Shown here piece after piece: positions 2,520-54,403 of a DNA stretch of 64,000 bases. Made by a program: the position numbers and the translations under genes. Source of the DNA: an uncultured Saccharofermentans sp. (GTDB taxonomy: Bacteria > Bacillota > Clostridia > Saccharofermentanales > Saccharofermentanaceae); NCBI GenBank assembly GCA_905234715.1, contig CAJOJI010000001.1, positions 8,582 to 72,581 of the forward strand. The letters run 5' to 3'. Position 1 is the stretch's first letter, and each line of letters starts with the position of its first letter. A model generated the notes under the pieces. That model ran no database searches and was not told where the DNA came from. It worked only from the letters and a program-made list of their open reading frames with translations.

Positions 2520-3074
2520 TTACTTGATGTTTTCTCTCCATGTTGCAGGCTTGAATTCGTCTATCAACGGGAGGAGTCTCTTATCAACGTCGATCTTGAA
2601 TACTGCATTGAAGTTGTTTGTTGCGATCATCTGACCTGCAAATCCTACGATGACAACGAGTTCCTGATCGTTAAAGAATTTTCTGAGTTTGTCGAAGAGC
2701 TCATCAGATACTGCAGTAGGATTCTTAACATATTGTTCAGCGAGTTCTGTGAGAACTGTTTCCTTCTCATCGTAAACGAGGTTAGCGGGATCCAAACCCA
2801 AACCCTTTACGTCACTGATGAAGAAGAGTGAGCAGAGCTGGCATGAGTTTGTTGTAGAGATCTTGTGAGCGTAGAGGATCGCATCCTTTTCGCCGATTAC
2901 TTCAACGAGTCTCTTCCAGGATGTGTACCAAGCCATGTATGCATCGTATGTTGCTGCATCGTTAAGAAGTCCCTTCTTCATGTTGGTAACTGCGTTTCTT
3001 CCTGCGAGCTCGTCATAGCGCTCCTTCTCTGCGCCTGTTGCTTCGTTCTGTTCTACCAATTTGATTCTTGCCAT
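2520..3074 (-). CDS. Carboxymuconolactone decarboxylase / AhpD-like protein with CxxC
   Basis: STTNSCQLC resembles the AhpD NxCxxC motif. The C-terminal half resembles CMD helical repeats. Start moved to ATG 3074 (RBS GGAG). Confidence 0.65.
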   Translation of the reverse strand: MARIKLVEQNEATGAEKERYDELAGRNAVTNMKKGLLNDAATYDAYMAWYTSWKRLVEVIGEKDAILYAHKISTTNSCQLCSLFFISDVKGLGLDPANLVYDEKETVLTELAEQYVKNPTAVSDELFDKLRKFFNDQELVVIVGFAGQMIATNNFNAVFKIDVDKRLLPLIDEFKPATWRENIK

Positions 3075-3115
3075 TTTTAGTAATCTCCTTTTTTGCAATT
3101 TAGTCCCGGTATTTT

Positions 3116-4276
3116 TTAAAGTGCGATCTTTAAGATCTCTACTATCTTTTGTGAGTCGAGCGGTTCATAGTGTCCTACGCTGCCGCCCTTTGTTGCGCGC
3201 TGTGCCATAACCTCAAAGTCCTTGTCAGTTATTCCGAGTTCGGACAGATGTGTCTTAAGTCCCAGTTTCTTAAAGAACTTCTCGAGTTCTTCCGATAACA
3301 GAAGCGCGCGTTCTTTTTCTGAATAGTCGTACGGATCCTTGCCGTAGACTCTGCTTGCGAGAAGTGCAAGTCTCCAGGGCTTGATGTCAGCAATGTACTT
3401 AGTCCAAGCTGTGAAGACGATAGCCATTCCTTCTCCGTGTGTGATGTTGTACTGTGCAGAGAGTTCATGCTCGATACGGTGTGATCCCCAGTCTGCCGAT
3501 CTTCCGGCATCAAGGAAATTATTGTGTGCTACTGATGCGAGCCACTGTATCTCTGCTCTTGCGTTGATGTTCGTAGGGTCTTCGATAAGTCTGTCTGCAT
3601 TGACGAGCAATGCTCTTACGGCGCCTTCGATAAGGTAGTCTGTCGTATCTGAATTCTTCTCATCAGAGAAATATCTTTCGAGAAGGTGTGACAACACGTC
3701 TGCGATTCCCACGAAGGTCTGATACGAAGGAAGGTTTACCGTGTACCTGGGGTTCATGATCGCGAACTTTGGGATAATGCGGTCATCTTCAAAACCTTTC
3801 TTCCACTCACCGTATGATAGGATCGCGCAGTTGGACGTCTCGGAACCGCTCGATGCCGTTGTCGCGATGACTCCGATGTTAAGAACGTGTTCGGGAGTAA
3901 CACCTTTATCGAAGAAATCCCAGACATCGCCATCGTACGGTATACCGAGAGCTATCGCTTTGGCGGTGTCGATGGAGCTGCCACCACCGACTGCGAGAAC
4001 GAAGTCAACTTTATCTTCCTTGCCCTTTGCGACAAGCTTTCTGACAAGCTCGATGGACGGATTTGGTACTACTTCACCACTCTCCGAGAACTTGATCCCG
4101 AGTTCCTTTACTGCGTCAGTGATGACGTCGTAAATACCCAGTGTTTTGATGAAGTCTCCGCTGTATACCAATAGGAGTGAACTGACTTTATGTTGCGATA
4201 AAAGAGACTTCAATTTCTTTTCGCTGTCCTCGCCGAAAACTATTTTCGCGGGGTTGTAATACTCAAATCCGATCAT
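3116..4276 (-). CDS. Iron-containing (group III) alcohol dehydrogenase, BdhA/YqhD-like
   Basis: VPNPS, AVGGGSSIDTAKAIA, TTASSGSE, and metal-binding H/D residues (DVLSH, SHRIEHELS, ITHGEG). Confidence 0.9.
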   Translation of the reverse strand: MIGFEYYNPAKIVFGEDSEKKLKSLLSQHKVSSLLLVYSGDFIKTLGIYDVITDAVKELGIKFSESGEVVPNPSIELVRKLVAKGKEDKVDFVLAVGGGSSIDTAKAIALGIPYDGDVWDFFDKGVTPEHVLNIGVIATTASSGSETSNCAILSYGEWKKGFEDDRIIPKFAIMNPRYTVNLPSYQTFVGIADVLSHLLERYFSDEKNSDTTDYLIEGAVRALLVNADRLIEDPTNINARAEIQWLASVAHNNFLDAGRSADWGSHRIEHELSAQYNITHGEGMAIVFTAWTKYIADIKPWRLALLASRVYGKDPYDYSEKERALLLSEELEKFFKKLGLKTHLSELGITDKDFEVMAQRATKGGSVGHYEPLDSQKIVEILKIAL

Positions 4277-4299: not shown

Positions 4300-5181
4300 T
4301 TAACCGAAGAGAGGTACTACTGCACCGTCGTATGTATCTTCGATGAACTTTGCAACTTCAGGTCCCTGAAGAACTTCTATGAGAGCCTTTACTGCAGGAT
4401 CGTTTGCCTTATCAGGTGATGTTGCAATGATGTTTCCGTATGTCTGTGCTGCAAGACCGTCGTTAGCTTCAACAGCAAGTGCCTGGCTTACGTGGAGGCC
4501 GCCTTCGATCGCATAGTTACCGTTAATGACTGCTACATCTACATCAGGGAGTGCTGCAACGAGCTGCTCAGGTGCAAGTTCCTTGAACTGAATGTTAAGA
4601 GGATTCTCTACGATGTCTTCTACCGTTGCATTGATTCCTGCATCGTCCTTAAGCTTGATGATGCCTTCCTGTGCGAGGAGGAGAAGTGCTCTTGCTTCGT
4701 TTGTTACATTGTTGGGAACTGCGATCACTGCGCCATCCTGGAGGTCCTTAAGATCTTTTACTCTGCCTGCATAGATGCCGAAAGGTTCATAGTGGACTGC
4801 GCCAACTGAAACAAGATCTGAACCGTTTTCTTTATTGAACTGTTCGAGGTAAGGAACGTGCTGGAAATAGTTTGCGTCAAGTGAGCCTTCGATAACGCCT
4901 GTGTTAGGTGTAACGGAATCTTCAAGTCTTACGATCTCGAGAGTGATTCCCTGCTCTGCGAGGATCGGCTTTGCAACTTCCAAGATCTCTGCGTGAGGTG
5001 TGATGTTTGCGCCTACCTTAAGTACTACATTAGCCTGTGCATCAGCCTGAGCTTCTGTCTGCGTATCGCTGCCTACATTTGTATTAACCTGTGTGGGCGC
5101 TGCTTTTCCGCATGCTGCGAATGATCCTGTGATTGCGAATAAAAGTCCTGCGGCAATAGCCTTCTTAATTATGTTTTTCAT
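4300..5181 (-). CDS. metQ: Methionine ABC transporter substrate-binding lipoprotein MetQ/NlpA
   Basis: Lipobox FAAC, PHAEILE, DANYFQHVPYL, AVPNNVTNEARALLLL, AVINGNYA. Confidence 0.92.
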   Translation of the reverse strand: MKNIIKKAIAAGLLFAITGSFAACGKAAPTQVNTNVGSDTQTEAQADAQANVVLKVGANITPHAEILEVAKPILAEQGITLEIVRLEDSVTPNTGVIEGSLDANYFQHVPYLEQFNKENGSDLVSVGAVHYEPFGIYAGRVKDLKDLQDGAVIAVPNNVTNEARALLLLAQEGIIKLKDDAGINATVEDIVENPLNIQFKELAPEQLVAALPDVDVAVINGNYAIEGGLHVSQALAVEANDGLAAQTYGNIIATSPDKANDPAVKALIEVLQGPEVAKFIEDTYDGAVVPLFG

Positions 5182-5468: not shown

Positions 5469-5503
5469 ACTTTACTACTCATAACCTACCATGTCAATAG
5501 GTT
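5469..5503 (-). promoter_or_regulatory. Sigma-A promoter (TTGACA-17-TAAAGT) with AACCTA-N9-TAGGTT operator
   Basis: -35 at 5492-5497, -10 at 5469-5474, perfect palindrome arms at 5483-5488 and 5498-5503. Confidence 0.75.
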
Positions 5504-5558
5504 TATTGAAATTTTTTTTCGCTTTCTTGAAAATTCCTGTTTTACTTGCTTTCGCGTA

Positions 5559-6122
5559 TTAAGAGATAACTGTCTTCTGCTTATTCTTATTTACTTCACT
5601 ATGCTGTGACAGCTGATACTTATCGAAAAGTTTTACGTACATAAGCGGTACTGCTCCGACGATCGCAGCACTTGCCTGGATACCGTTGGGAATAACCGAA
5701 CCCAATGCCGCTTCAACACCATACATAAACGGCAGTGATTCAAATGCAAAATAACCGGCGATCATGATGAGTTCGGCAATGAAAGATGCTGACAGTTTTC
5801 TTCCGAGGGAAACTTTTCCCTGAGCATTTCTCTTAAGCAGCAAACCTGCAATAAGGCCCATCACACCTTTGATGAGAAATGTAGCAACTGCATACTGCGG
5901 ATAACCGGCAAGAAGGTCTGCAAGTGTCGATCCGATCGCTGCGGGAACGAATGCAAAAGGTCCCATTATGTATGAAGTTACCAGTATCATAAGGTCACCT
6001 AAATTGATGTGTCCGATCGCTGTCGGAATGTGAAGTTCAGTGCCTACAAATATCAAGGCTGCGAGCACACCTGCGTATGCGATCTTCTTTAAATTGTTTC
6101 TGTTCTTGTCTTTACTGCTCAT
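5559..6122 (-). CDS. ECF transporter S component (HmpT/PdxU-like sequence family)
   Basis: About six hydrophobic helices, with AxxxA-type first helix, INLGD, GSTLADLLAGY and TFLIKG motifs. Confidence 0.85.
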   Translation of the reverse strand: MSSKDKNRNNLKKIAYAGVLAALIFVGTELHIPTAIGHINLGDLMILVTSYIMGPFAFVPAAIGSTLADLLAGYPQYAVATFLIKGVMGLIAGLLLKRNAQGKVSLGRKLSASFIAELIMIAGYFAFESLPFMYGVEAALGSVIPNGIQASAAIVGAVPLMYVKLFDKYQLSQHSEVNKNKQKTVIS

Positions 6123-6152: not shown

Positions 6153-6191
6153 CAAAAACAAAAACGGGAATTCTTTTTTAAGAACTCCCGT
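6153..6191 (-). terminator. Attenuator terminator upstream of the ECF S-component gene
   Basis: mRNA ACGGGAGUUCUU-AAAA-AAGAAUUCCCGU (12 bp, one G:U) followed by UUUUGUUUUUG. Confidence 0.85.
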
Positions 6192-6232: not shown

Positions 6233-6310
6233 TCAGATCACTCCGGTCATATGCGGGAGGGTGACTAAAGCAGGGCACATGCAGATCATAGTGGCCTGAA
6301 TGCTTTTCAT
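6233..6310 (-). CDS. Leader peptide C, 25 aa: MKSIQATMICMCPALVTLPHMTGVI
   Basis: GGAGGAGGT RBS 7 nt before ATG 6310, an MICMC codon cluster, and a downstream terminator. Confidence 0.75.
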   Translation of the reverse strand: MKSIQATMICMCPALVTLPHMTGVI

Positions 6311-6339: not shown

Positions 6340-6374
6340 AAGTTAACATGTATTACCTATCGTGTCAATGGGTT
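6340..6374 (-). promoter_or_regulatory. Sigma-A promoter (TTGACA-17-TAACTT) with AACCCA-N9-TAGGTA operator variant
   Basis: -35 at 6363-6368, -10 at 6340-6345, palindrome variant at 6354-6374 in the same register as the other three sites. Confidence 0.7.
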
Positions 6375-6477
6375 TATTCTCAAGAATTCAAACATCAAGC
6401 ATAATTTAGTATGTCTTCATAAATATTGTTTTTTGCTATAATCTATCTCGATTTCGGGAAAGAAAAGGAATAACCAT

Positions 6478-16830: not shown

Positions 16831-17745
16831 TTAATCGAATAATCCTTTGCTTAAATATCTGTCTCCTCTGTCAGGGAAAACAGTTACTATGTTTCCTTCA
16901 TCAATTTCTTCCGCAAGCTTAAGTGCTGCCGCAAGTGCCGCACCTGATGAAGAACCGGCAAGAATGCCTTCGTGCTTTGCGAGTTCTCTTGAAGCATTGA
17001 ATGCTTCATCGTCATTGATCTTTATGACCTTATCAACAAGCGTGATATCCATCGTATCTGCTATAAAGTCGTTGCCGATACCTTCGATGTTGTAATCGAA
17101 ATGTTCTCCTCCGCCGATCGTTGAACCGTAAGGATCTGCAAGAACTCCGACGATATCCGGGTTTTGCTCCTTGAGATACTTAACGACTCCGGAGAATGTT
17201 CCGCCGCTTCCTGCGCCTGCTACAAAGTAATTGATATTACCGTCAAGCTGTGAATAGATTTCAGGTCCTGTTGTCTCATAGTGAGCAAGAGGGTTAGCGG
17301 GATTTCTGAACTGTCTTAATGAAACAGAACCTGGAATGGTCTTAAGTATTTCTTCGGCTTTCTGCTCTGCTCCGAGCATTCCGCCTTCTCTTGATGTGTG
17401 AACGATTTCGGCACCCAATGCCTTCATGACTTTCTGCTTCTCGACTGAGAACTTTTCAGGCACCGTGAATATTACTCTGTATCCCTGGTTAAGCGCTGCA
17501 ACTGCGATTCCGATACCGGTATTGCCCGCTGTGGCATCAACGATCGTTCCGCCTTCTTTAAGTATTCCTCTCTTTCTTGCGTCATCGATCATGTAAACGC
17601 CTACACGGTCTTTTACGCTTCCTGCGGGGTTCATAAGTTCAAGTTTTGCATAGATATTTACTCCGGGCTTAATGCCCATATGGGAGATCTTAAGGATCGG
17701 AGTATTACCGATCATCTGTCTTACATTTTCATATACGTTATTCAT
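16831..17745 (-). CDS. mccA: PLP-dependent cysteine synthase family, MccA-like (O-acetylserine-dependent cystathionine beta-synthase)
   Basis: NPAGSVKDR, TAGNTGIG, FSVEKQ and GAGSGGTF; adjacent to an mccB-like gene. Confidence 0.75.
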   Translation of the reverse strand: MNNVYENVRQMIGNTPILKISHMGIKPGVNIYAKLELMNPAGSVKDRVGVYMIDDARKRGILKEGGTIVDATAGNTGIGIAVAALNQGYRVIFTVPEKFSVEKQKVMKALGAEIVHTSREGGMLGAEQKAEEILKTIPGSVSLRQFRNPANPLAHYETTGPEIYSQLDGNINYFVAGAGSGGTFSGVVKYLKEQNPDIVGVLADPYGSTIGGGEHFDYNIEGIGNDFIADTMDITLVDKVIKINDDEAFNASRELAKHEGILAGSSSGAALAAALKLAEEIDEGNIVTVFPDRGDRYLSKGLFD

Positions 17746-17755
17746 TTCATTTACC

Positions 17756-18910
17756 TCACGCCTTAACGGAATTCTCGATTGCCTGCTTCAGATCTGCGAT
17801 CAGATCATCAACATCTTCAATGCCTACTGAAAGTCTGATGAGTTCATCAACGATTCCTACTTCTTTTCTGATGTCAGCAGGGATTGCTGCATGTGTCATC
17901 GTTGCAGGATGGCATACGAGTGATTCAACGCCGCCCAAACTTTCTGCAAGAGTAATGAGCTGAAGCTTCTCGAAAAACAACTTGTAATCGTACTTGTCGT
18001 TAAGAACAAATGAGATCATTGCGCCGGCACCGTCAGCCTGCTTTTTCTGGATCTCATAACCCGGATCAGTCTTAAGACCGGGATAGTAAACCTTGCTTAC
18101 ATAACCGCTGTCCACGAGCCACTCAGCAACCTTCTGCGCATTCGCAACATGTCTGTCCATACGGACACCTAAAGTCTTGATACCTCTTATGATGAGGAAG
18201 CTGTCCCAGGGTGCAAGCACTCCGCCGATTGCATTCTGCAGATAGTAAAGTCTGTCCGCAAGCTGCTTGTCGTTTACTACCACGAAGCCTGAAATCGTAT
18301 CAGAGTGACCGCCGAGATATTTTGTTCCGCTGTGGATTACGATGTCTGCACCGAGCGTCAAAGGTCTCTGAAGATAAGGTGTAAGGAATGTGTTGTCTAC
18401 GATAACGAGCTTGTCGTGCTTCTTGCCGATCTTGGATACCGCTTCGATATCAGTGATCGTGAGAAGCGGGTTTGCAGGTGTCTCGATATAGATTGCTTTT
18501 ACATCATCGTCGATCGCATTTTCGACAGCTTCAAGATCGGATGTATCAACGATCTTGTATGTGATATTGAAGTTCTTGAAAACGTTGTCGAGGATACGGA
18601 ACGTACCACCGTAAATGTTATCCGAAACGATGAGCTTATCGCCTGATTTAAAGAGCGAGAGAACCGTGTTGATGGCAGCAAGTCCTGATGCGAATGCAAG
18701 ACCGTACTGTCCTTCTTCGAGATCTGCAATGAGCTTCTCGAGTGCTGCTCTGGTGGGGTTGCCAGTTCTCGAATATTCCCAACCTCTGTTTTTGCCTAGA
18801 CCGTCCTGCTTATATGTAGATGTCTGGTATACGGGAATGTTTACCGCACCTGTTGTCTCGTCTCCGTCAATACCGCCGTGTATAAGTAAAGAATTTCTTT
18901 TGTAACTCAT
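17756..18910 (-). CDS. mccB: Cystathionine gamma-lyase, MccB-like (Cys/Met metabolism PLP family)
   Basis: PVYQTSTY, EYSRTGNPTR, HSGTKYLGGHSD, LAESLGGVESL. Confidence 0.75.
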   Translation of the reverse strand: MSYKRNSLLIHGGIDGDETTGAVNIPVYQTSTYKQDGLGKNRGWEYSRTGNPTRAALEKLIADLEEGQYGLAFASGLAAINTVLSLFKSGDKLIVSDNIYGGTFRILDNVFKNFNITYKIVDTSDLEAVENAIDDDVKAIYIETPANPLLTITDIEAVSKIGKKHDKLVIVDNTFLTPYLQRPLTLGADIVIHSGTKYLGGHSDTISGFVVVNDKQLADRLYYLQNAIGGVLAPWDSFLIIRGIKTLGVRMDRHVANAQKVAEWLVDSGYVSKVYYPGLKTDPGYEIQKKQADGAGAMISFVLNDKYDYKLFFEKLQLITLAESLGGVESLVCHPATMTHAAIPADIRKEVGIVDELIRLSVGIEDVDDLIADLKQAIENSVKA

Positions 18911-19138: not shown

Positions 19139-19172
19139 ATTATGCCACATAAACCTACCTTGTCAATAGGTT
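19139..19172 (-). promoter_or_regulatory. Sigma-A promoter (TTGACA-16-TGnCATAAT) with AACCTA-N9-TAGGTT operator
   Basis: -35 at 19161-19166, -10 at 19139-19144, perfect palindrome at 19152-19172, immediately after the iscU stop. Confidence 0.75.
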
Positions 19173-19179
19173 ATTCAGA

Positions 19180-19560
19180 TTATTTTTCTTCCTGCCTGGA
19201 TTCATAGTCCTTGAGAGCAGCTTCAATTGCTTCCTGTGCAAGGACTGAACAGTGCATCTTATAGTCAGGCAGACCGTCCAAAGCTTCTGCAACTGCTTTG
19301 TTTGTAAGCTGTCTTGCTTCCTCAACGGGCTTGCCCTTGATGAGTTCAGTTGCCATTGAGCTTGATGCAATTGCGCTTCCGCATCCGAATGTCTCGAACT
19401 TAACATCCTTTACGATGTCATCTTCGATCTTGAGATACATCTTCATGATGTCTCCGCACTTAGCGTTACCTACTGTGCCTACACCGTTTGCGTCTTCAAG
19501 AACGCCTACGTTTCTCGGATTTCTGAAATGATCCATTACTTTCTCACTATATAAAGCCAT
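19180..19560 (-). CDS. iscU: Fe-S cluster scaffold IscU/NifU
   Basis: YSEKVMDHFRNPRNVG, CGD, FGCGSAIAS, KMHCS. Confidence 0.95.
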   Translation of the reverse strand: MALYSEKVMDHFRNPRNVGVLEDANGVGTVGNAKCGDIMKMYLKIEDDIVKDVKFETFGCGSAIASSSMATELIKGKPVEEARQLTNKAVAEALDGLPDYKMHCSVLAQEAIEAALKDYESRQEEK

Positions 19561-19572
19561 GTTGATGCCCCC

Positions 19573-20763
19573 TTATAAAATGAATTGTGTCTTTCCTGCT
19601 ACGAGGTCTCTCCAGACCGGCGAAAAACCTCTCAGGTATTCAACAACTTCTTTGACTGACTTGATTATGTAATCAGCTTCTTCATCAGTAATATCTTCAC
19701 CGATGCTCAGACGAAGTGAACCGTGCGCTACATCGTGCACTCTTCCGATCGCAAGAAGAACATGGCTCGGATCGAGTGATCCTGAAGTACATGCACTTCC
19801 CGAAGATGCCGCGATTCCCTTATCATCCAGCAGGAGCAAAAGCGACTCGCCTTCGATTCCTTCAAAACAGAAATTAATGTTGCTCGGAAGACGGCTATTT
19901 TCATCACCGTTCAATGCAGAATGAGGTATTTCCTTAAGGCCTGCAATGATCTTATTTCTTATCTTAGTAAGATGCTCTGTATTCTTGTCGATGTTATTTA
20001 CTGCATCGTTTAGAGCCGTTGCCATCGCAGCAATTCCGGGTACATTTTCCGTACCTGCTCTTTTGCCCTTTTCCTGAGCGCCGCCTTCGATAAGATTTGT
20101 AAGTCTGATTCCCTTCTTGAAGTAAAGGAATCCTACACCCTTAGGTCCGTGGAATTTATGTGCGGAAGCCGAGAGCATATCGATATTTTCTTCATTAACA
20201 TCGATATGAAGATGTCCGATTGCCTGTACAGCATCAGTGTGGAAGAGCACGCCCTTTTCTCTGCATACGGCACCGATACCCTTGATATCCTGGATGGTTC
20301 CGATCTCGTTATTTGCATACATTATCGTTACGAGAGCTGTGTCCTCACGGATCGCAGCCGCAACTTCCTCAGGCTTGATTATGCCGTTCTCGTGAACGTC
20401 CAGAAGTGTTATCTTAAAGCCTTCTTTTGCAAGTTTGTTCAATGTGTGAAGAACTGCGTGATGCTCGAACTTACTTGAGATGATGTGCTTCTTGCCATTC
20501 TTCTCTCCGAGTTTTGCAGCAGAGATAATTGCCTGGTTATCGGCTTCGCTTCCGCCGGAAGTAAAAAGGATCTCTTTGGGATCTGCGCCTATCGTCTTTG
20601 CGATATCCTCTCGGGCCTGCTCTAAGACTTCCTTAGCCTTCTGACCGAATTCGTAAAGGCTTGAAGGGTTTCCGTAAGTATCTCTGATAAGAGACGTCAT
20701 TGTATTTATCGCCGCTTCGCTCATCGCTGTGGTTGCAGCATTATCCGCATATATCATGTGCAC
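19573..20763 (-). CDS. iscS: Cysteine desulfurase IscS/NifS
   Basis: [32 protein letters not shown]. Confidence 0.95.
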
Positions 20764-20790: not shown

Positions 20791-20825
20791 ATCATAATTC
20801 GTTTAACCCACCAAGTCAATAGGTT
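20791..20825 (-). promoter_or_regulatory. iscS promoter (TTGACT-17-TATGAT) with AACCTA-N9-TGGGTT operator variant
   Basis: -35 at 20814-20819, -10 at 20791-20796, palindrome at 20805-20825. Confidence 0.75.
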
Positions 20826-20845
20826 TATATGAAATCAATTTGATG

Positions 20846-54207: not shown

Positions 54208-54233
54208 GACAATCCCTCCTTTAAGATTGATGA

Positions 54234-54345
54234 GCAAAGAACGGACAACCCGGAGGGGCAGGTTACTTACCCTGTATAACAGGACGGCCGGGCTACCTAC
54301 CGGCTCTGGCATATCTTACGGTATGCGTTGCGTTTTTATCTTTGC
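54234..54345 (-). ncRNA. yjdF (azaaromatic-sensing) riboswitch
   Basis: GCAAAGA/UUCUUUGC closing stem, CCGGUAGGUAGCCCGG and AGUAACCUGCCCCUCCGGGUUGUCC motifs, directly upstream of the yjdF RBS. Confidence 0.9.
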
Positions 54346-54403
54346 ATGTTACGGGATAATTATATCACCTGTGATATCTGTAAAAACATCACAGAGAAAC
54401 ACT

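Follow-up and report, generated by a model that had tools for sequence, protein, structure and literature searches.

The window analysed here, a 64,000-nucleotide stretch of DNA from an uncultured Saccharofermentans sp., carries on its minus strand (5559–6122) a gene for a 187-aa ECF S-component of the PdxU/PdxU2-HmpT type with the six-helix S-component fold. Its product matched PF07155 in a Pfam profile search at 95.5 bits (cut-off 26.7), while no NCBIfam model scored above its cut-off; TIGR04002, TIGR04522 and FolT identities were rejected on the same grounds. The sole significant PDB relative by sequence was 4HZU chain S (E 4e-8), which is the L. brevis HmpT/PdxU2 protein (COG4720, PF07155) from which pyridoxamine was recovered by mass spectrometry (PMC4860826). 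The same chain ranked first by fold (TM 0.73/0.83, rmsd 1.8 Å) in a Foldseek comparison with an AlphaFold model of the protein (pLDDT 88, pTM 0.84), ahead of FolT, RibU, ThiT, BioY and PanT, and the top 27 matches were all S-components. An HmpT/PdxU-like ECF S-component had been proposed for this gene in an earlier sequence-only reading, and the PF07155 score and the leading rank of 4HZU chain S by both sequence and fold bear this out. Close homologues come from Saccharofermentans and from related MAGs and bear the name ‘ECF transporter S component’.

The gene is solitary, with no T or A genes adjoining it, a hallmark of group II S-components, and helix 1 of its product carries two (A/G)xxxA motifs (A17xxxA21 and G18xxxA22). 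An ecfA'-ecfT-type module was located near truA on contig C26, where an ATPase-like partial ORF precedes EcfT at the contig edge; the S-component presumably uses a shared EcfAA'T module. Pocket positions were mapped by sequence alignment to HmpT rather than from a liganded structure, with the HmpT pocket residues taken from PMC4860826: D43, Y77, K85, M88, Y124, S142, N146 and Q149 align to HmpT E41, W76, H84, Q87, Y120, S136, N140 and Q143, respectively. Four of the eight are identical, two are conservative replacements (E41>D43, W76>Y77) and two are changed (H84>K85, Q87>M88). Both changes hold throughout the Clostridia subfamily, and K85 was invariant in the class sample.

Read 5' to 3', the region ahead of the gene consists of a palindrome over TTGACA, an SD, a 25-codon ORF, a terminator and the SD of the S-component itself. 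The palindromic operator, ACC(T/C)A-N9-TAGGT, was located by pattern and matrix scan at 6352–6375 (minus strand), where it straddles the -35 box of a sigma-A-type promoter (6340–6368, minus strand) made up of TTGACA at 6368–6363, 17 nt, and a TG-extended, weak -10 at 6345–6340. This -10 fell below the promoter scan threshold; its TG, TA and final T are retained in 15 orthologues. Three further pattern matches on the minus strand precede a leader and metQ (operator 5481–5504; metQ 4300–5181), a leader followed by mccB (17756–18910), mccA (16831–17745), metN and metI (operator 19150–19173), and iscS/nifS (19573–20763) with nifU/iscU (19180–19560; operator 20803–20826). The four matches within the window compare with none in 100 shuffles, and the pattern was derived from two sites, so that the independent matches are those at 19150–19173 and 20803–20826. 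When the genome was scanned with a matrix built from the four window sites, metY-cysK on contig C55 was the only other unit preceded by a strong match (27 bits; next score 20.7). MccA, MccB and IscS/NifS are PLP enzymes. The sequence-only reading had assigned the S-component a sulfur operator and a Met/Cys leader; both are present (operator 6352–6375, leader 6310–6233), and the MccA-, MccB- and IscS-type genes that it had linked to the transporter were found within the window behind the same operator.

The leader ORF (6233–6310, minus strand) has 25 codons, a strong SD and the run M-I-C-M-C at codons 8–12. Such a Met/Cys cluster occurs in just 4 of the 510 short SD-led ORFs of the genome, and all four follow an operator. 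Among 15 orthologous leaders at least two Cys codons are retained at codons 10–15, whereas the neighbouring Met can be lost, and cysteine is therefore the better-supported candidate for the attenuator signal. Directly before the S-component SD, an intrinsic terminator with its U-tract (6154–6191, minus strand) has a 12-bp stem (6191–6164) whose 5' arm core, CGGGAG at 6190–6185, is complementary to the predicted antiterminator strand CTCCCG within the leader ORF (6254–6259, minus strand); both motifs are invariant in 15 of 15 leaders. Folding of the nascent RNA with the first Cys codon masked as if occupied by a ribosome gave a CTCCCG-CGGGAG pairing probability of 0.97–1.0 (the value of 0 for a ribosome at the stop codon is a product of the mask and not evidence). 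Covariation of the antiterminator/terminator pairs was not significant, with 54–178 of 500 shuffles scoring as high, because the core pairs are invariant. With an SD-led ORF, regulatory codons, mutually exclusive hairpins and the right spacing, the leader at 6233–6310 has the layout of a predicted leader-peptide attenuator. Classical trpL/hisL-type attenuators and the amino-acid leaders of Actinobacteria (PMC1262725) likewise combine clustered codons in a short ORF, an antiterminator strand inside that ORF and an intrinsic terminator; unlike them, this one belongs to a Clostridia lineage, is predicted to sense Cys and would control a transporter for a cofactor, not a gene of an amino-acid pathway. 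The leader peptides matched no NCBIfam model, and an Rfam scan of the locus returned no SAM, T-box or TPP element. The only Rfam match in the window was an azaaromatic (yjdF) riboswitch at 54225–54349 (minus strand, 73 bits), 48 kb from the locus. No terminator was called in 5505–5558, which separates the S gene from the metQ promoter, so that S transcripts may continue into the metQ leader.

A single Rrf2 gene is carried by the genome (contig C28), and its product has three Cys and scores below the family cut-offs (IscR, 107 against 207.55; CymR, 99 against 195). Since a conserved variant of the palindrome lies over the -10 box of this gene's own promoter (L102:1420-1470, G000:C28), this Rrf2 protein is the likely regulator binding the palindrome. 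Palindromes over the own -10 box were also seen in Rrf2 loci L120, L122, L124, L126 and L135, and at several Rrf2 loci a complete operator for a divergent gene lies on the opposite strand as well. The arrangement resembles the CymR/IscR (Rrf2) regulons of Bacillota (e.g. C. acetobutylicum, PMC3828012) in its palindromes over iscS-iscU, mccBA, cysK/metY and amino-acid ABC transporter promoters and in having just one Rrf2 gene, whose own promoter bears a conserved site; it differs from them in the sub-threshold scores and three cysteines of the Rrf2 protein. We found no paper, within an incomplete coverage of the literature, that places a B6 transporter in a CymR/IscR-type regulon.

Conservation of the sulfur link was assessed across 100 genomes of the Saccharofermentans-like genus, 85 of which contain the PF07155 S-component family. 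The gene at 5559–6122 belongs to a monophyletic clade of 31 loci (70–100% identity; SH-aLRT 98–99), and 30 of these lie in the sulfur regulon or in sulfur contexts: 15 carry an operator and leader of their own, eight sit inside an operator-mccB-mccA-metN-metI operon, and seven follow a glutamate-cysteine-ligase-like and EgtC-like pair, with the operator seen in two and the other five located downstream of mcc/met genes. The remaining orthologue (G007) lies behind an IS at a contig edge. The placement in a Cys/Met regulon first suggested for the window gene alone is thus supported and conserved, and because sulfur regulation was kept through several gene orders, it has outlasted a number of rearrangements and is no chance feature of this one genome. 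The glutamate-cysteine-ligase-like and EgtC-like (class II amidotransferase) genes, both below cut-offs, recur beside the S gene in L049, L046, L053, L054, L056, L064 and L066–L068; the pair was not found in this genome. A Fe-ADH and a YciW/AhpD-like gene (window 2520–4276, minus strand) follow metQ in most orthologous loci.

In trees from quick searches, run with no bootstrap, the 31-member clade is nested among copies divergent from PdxR (support 91–93), on a stem of 0.22–0.28 changes per column, and the PdxR-facing sister copies are 63–74% identical to the sulfur-clade copy. The operator also controls S-components outside this clade; in G070, for example, an S-component of the HAD-linked clade lies between metY and mccB, behind an operator and leader. 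The three operator-controlled groups were rejected as one clade (AU p=0.00045), which means that the link was either acquired repeatedly or is old and has been lost several times; the differing architectures of the groups favour repeated recruitment. An operator on three non-sister lineages fits a cofactor supply matched to PLP-dependent IscS, MccA/B, MetY and CysK. Every genome with a sulfur-clade copy also holds another S-component copy, which in this genome lies on C79 (54–56% identical) behind a HAD phosphatase, while G004, G092 and G100 retain a PdxR-facing copy besides the sulfur-regulated one. A division of regulatory labour would explain the extra paralogue, although such redundancy might also have allowed the function to change. 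The C79 paralogue (G000:C79:7313-8490, L031) is of a type that shares a transcript with a HAD phosphatase gene at about 18 loci, and this enzyme could be a PLP/PMP phosphatase.

Judging from these sequence comparisons, the S-component at 5559–6122 probably imports vitamin B6, the likely cargo given its nesting among PdxR-facing copies, the operator-led S-component/kinase operons, the unchanged pocket and B6 auxotrophy. Of the PdxR-type regulators opposite an S-component, the two that were scanned reached 390 and 382 bits against NF052282, for which the cut-off is 320. The S-component/PdxR divergon was found at 15 loci of the genus and at 4 in other genera; the core genes of PdxR regulons include pdxU and pdxK (PMC5320631). 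In G018, G042, G059 and G093 the same operator (24–31 bits) lies 34–69 nt before an S-component and a pyridoxamine kinase (NF005491, 288 and 291 bits, cut-off 231), so that elsewhere in the genus it controls an unmistakable B6 salvage unit. The eight pocket positions are identical in 31 of 31 sulfur-clade copies, 14 PdxR-linked copies and 4 kinase-linked copies, bar one S142G. PdxS was found in none of the 100 genus genomes and PdxJ had no match in this genome, from which this bacterium is predicted to be a B6 auxotroph. The genomic link to PdxR/PdxK is present in the sister and cousin clades and not at 5559–6122 itself, no PdxR scored above the cut-off in this genome, and identity to HmpT, the single characterised relative, is only 24%; the substrate of PdxU is a prediction and has not been verified (PMC9997740).

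The headline suggestion of the sequence-only reading, a possible new substrate, finds no support here, as the same operator drives an S-component with pyridoxamine kinase elsewhere and the pocket is unchanged. It had offered a choice between a sulfur compound and B6 for MccA, MccB and IscS, and only the latter is well supported: PdxR nesting, kinase operons, pocket and auxotrophy speak for B6, while the clade-specific residues lie off the pocket and speak against a sulfur compound. Relative to L. brevis PdxU2/HmpT, the protein shares the Pfam family, the fold, the solitary group II S gene and the counterparts of Y120, S136, N140 and Q143, but differs in overall sequence, in the H84>K85 and Q87>M88 positions, and in lying under an Rrf2 box and a predicted Cys leader attenuator. 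Compared with PdxU in PdxR regulons (Suvorova and Rodionov 2016, PMC5320631), its sister copies do form PdxR divergons and its relatives are co-transcribed with pyridoxamine kinase, whereas the copy at 5559–6122 has lost the PdxR link and sits in a sulfur regulon. A second, distant PF07155 subfamily, 27–36% identical, with HLGN and WAPFT motifs and lacking the pocket Lys, was observed in pdxK-S-aminotransferase operons (L172–L176, L040, L041), and in G012 an operator lies at the end of a pdxK-S-aminotransferase unit, following it.

As regards phosphorylation of the vitamin, this genome has no dedicated pyridoxal kinase, and ThiD in the thi operon is the only candidate. A divergent ThiD-like protein was recovered from L179–L189 (G064, G082, G105, G011, G044, G110, G020, G010, G045, G043 and G068) as open frames of 340–530 aa that score 60–86 bits on TIGR00097 and are 22–30% identical to ThiD; it occurs in genomes without canonical ThiD and PdxK, was not found in this genome by blastp, and is a candidate non-canonical B6 kinase. 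A count of 15 of 42 genomes with no B6 kinase was accordingly rejected as stated, at least 11 of the 15 holding the divergent protein. Three near-complete genomes (G007, G057 and G047) have a PLP pathway hole, and their combination of transporter, no PdxS and no candidate kinase makes direct PLP/PMP import possible.

Such import would be a special case of B6 uptake, in which the phosphorylated cofactor, held by the invariant pocket lysine K85, bypasses the kinase. For the S-component family we consider it unlikely. A PRK07105-type kinase is present in only 11 of 100 genomes, and G007, G057 (100% complete) and G047 (95%) have the S-component family without PdxS or a PF08543 kinase at E<=1e-15; K85, moreover, stands in place of HmpT H84 throughout the class sample, and PLP import is an open hole in current knowledge (PMC9997740). 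Against this, the kinase-linked copies share the same pocket, K85 included, ThiD is present in 24 of 42 near-complete genomes including this one, with the divergent ThiD-like candidate kinase in at least 11 others, and absence from MAGs is weak evidence. Import of PLP/PMP is nevertheless slightly likelier, and less radical, than a change of specificity in the duplicate toward a sulfur compound (cysteine, homocysteine, S-methylmethionine, MTA or gamma-glutamylcysteine) or a pyridoxal-cysteine adduct, which we regard as very unlikely. The sulfur contexts of 30 of the 31 orthologues, often beside metN-metI, metQ or the glutamate-cysteine-ligase-like/EgtC-like pair, would suit such a cargo, as would the constant status of the clade copy as an extra paralogue, the stem of 0.22–0.28 changes per column and the clade-specific residues T66, V79, A80, S113, G147, S151 and M161. 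All of these residues, however, lie outside the known pocket positions, and two of them, A80 and G147, occur commonly in distant homologues from Clostridia, so that the change, itself very doubtful, would have to act through residues beyond the eight mapped positions, after duplication from a PdxR-controlled B6 transporter. The same operator governs an S-component with pyridoxamine kinase elsewhere, and MetNIQ already serves methionine. Nor did the protein match PRK13661/UPF0397, which we take to be the methionine-linked MtsT-type S-component; the two are alike in broad Pfam family and in sulfur-amino-acid-linked regulation, but the gene at 5559–6122 has no NF010182 match, adjoining T/AA genes or SAM riboswitch.

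The original HmpT label would imply HMP or another thiamine precursor as cargo, and this appears highly improbable. A homologue with 46% identity in G032, from another family, does follow a TPP riboswitch-thiT (L025:713-2001), and ThiD is the only PdxK/ThiD-family kinase in this genome; yet no TPP riboswitch was found in the window or the scanned genus loci, the genome carries thiW-thiM-thiD-thiC, with ThiC for HMP synthesis of its own, PdxR-facing copies are the nearest relatives, and HmpT itself co-purified with pyridoxamine (PMC4860826). We also give very little credence to the idea that the regulatory placement arose incidentally through gene shuffling and carries no selective meaning. Gene order around the S gene is indeed highly variable, and the G007 orthologue lies behind an IS at a contig edge, but sulfur control was kept through at least three gene orders (15 with their own leader, 8 in the mccBA-metNI operon and 7 with the ligase/amidotransferase pair) and is also found in two further non-sister lineages.

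Returning to vitamin B6 as the cargo, the model that we infer for the ligand, vitamer, regulator, direction of regulation and use of the shared module is as follows. A group II S-component would bind a B6 vitamer outside the cell and import it via the shared EcfAA'T module. It would descend from PdxR-facing copies and, after duplication or relocation, have been rewired so as to join the sulfur regulon, where two putative switches would act in series, Rrf2 repression followed by cysteine attenuation. In the first, an Rrf2 protein resembling IscR and CymR would sit on the palindrome across the -35 box and repress initiation. When charged tRNA-Cys (perhaps tRNA-Met too) is scarce, the ribosome would stall at leader codons 10–12, leaving CTCCCG free to pair with the 5' arm of the terminator and allowing read-through; with no stall, the terminator would form. 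The outcome would be extra B6 uptake while a B6 auxotroph raises its PLP-dependent IscS, MccA, MccB, MetY and CysK.

The transporter is of a known type, and its regulatory wiring was described in no paper that we found, the literature being incompletely covered. Bacterial B6 transport is poorly characterised, with only two verified substrates (PMC9997740). The sulfur-regulated and PdxR-facing copies, about 70% identical and found together in three genomes, offer a matched pair for the study of specificity, including possible PLP import. The locus would also serve as a counter-example where regulatory elements alone are used to predict what an S-component carries, the regulon in this case showing the use of the cofactor and not the cargo. 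Finally, our data suggest that in rumen Clostridia auxotrophic for B6 the uptake of the vitamin is tied to cysteine and Fe-S status, a connection that may have been wired in up to three separate gene lineages.
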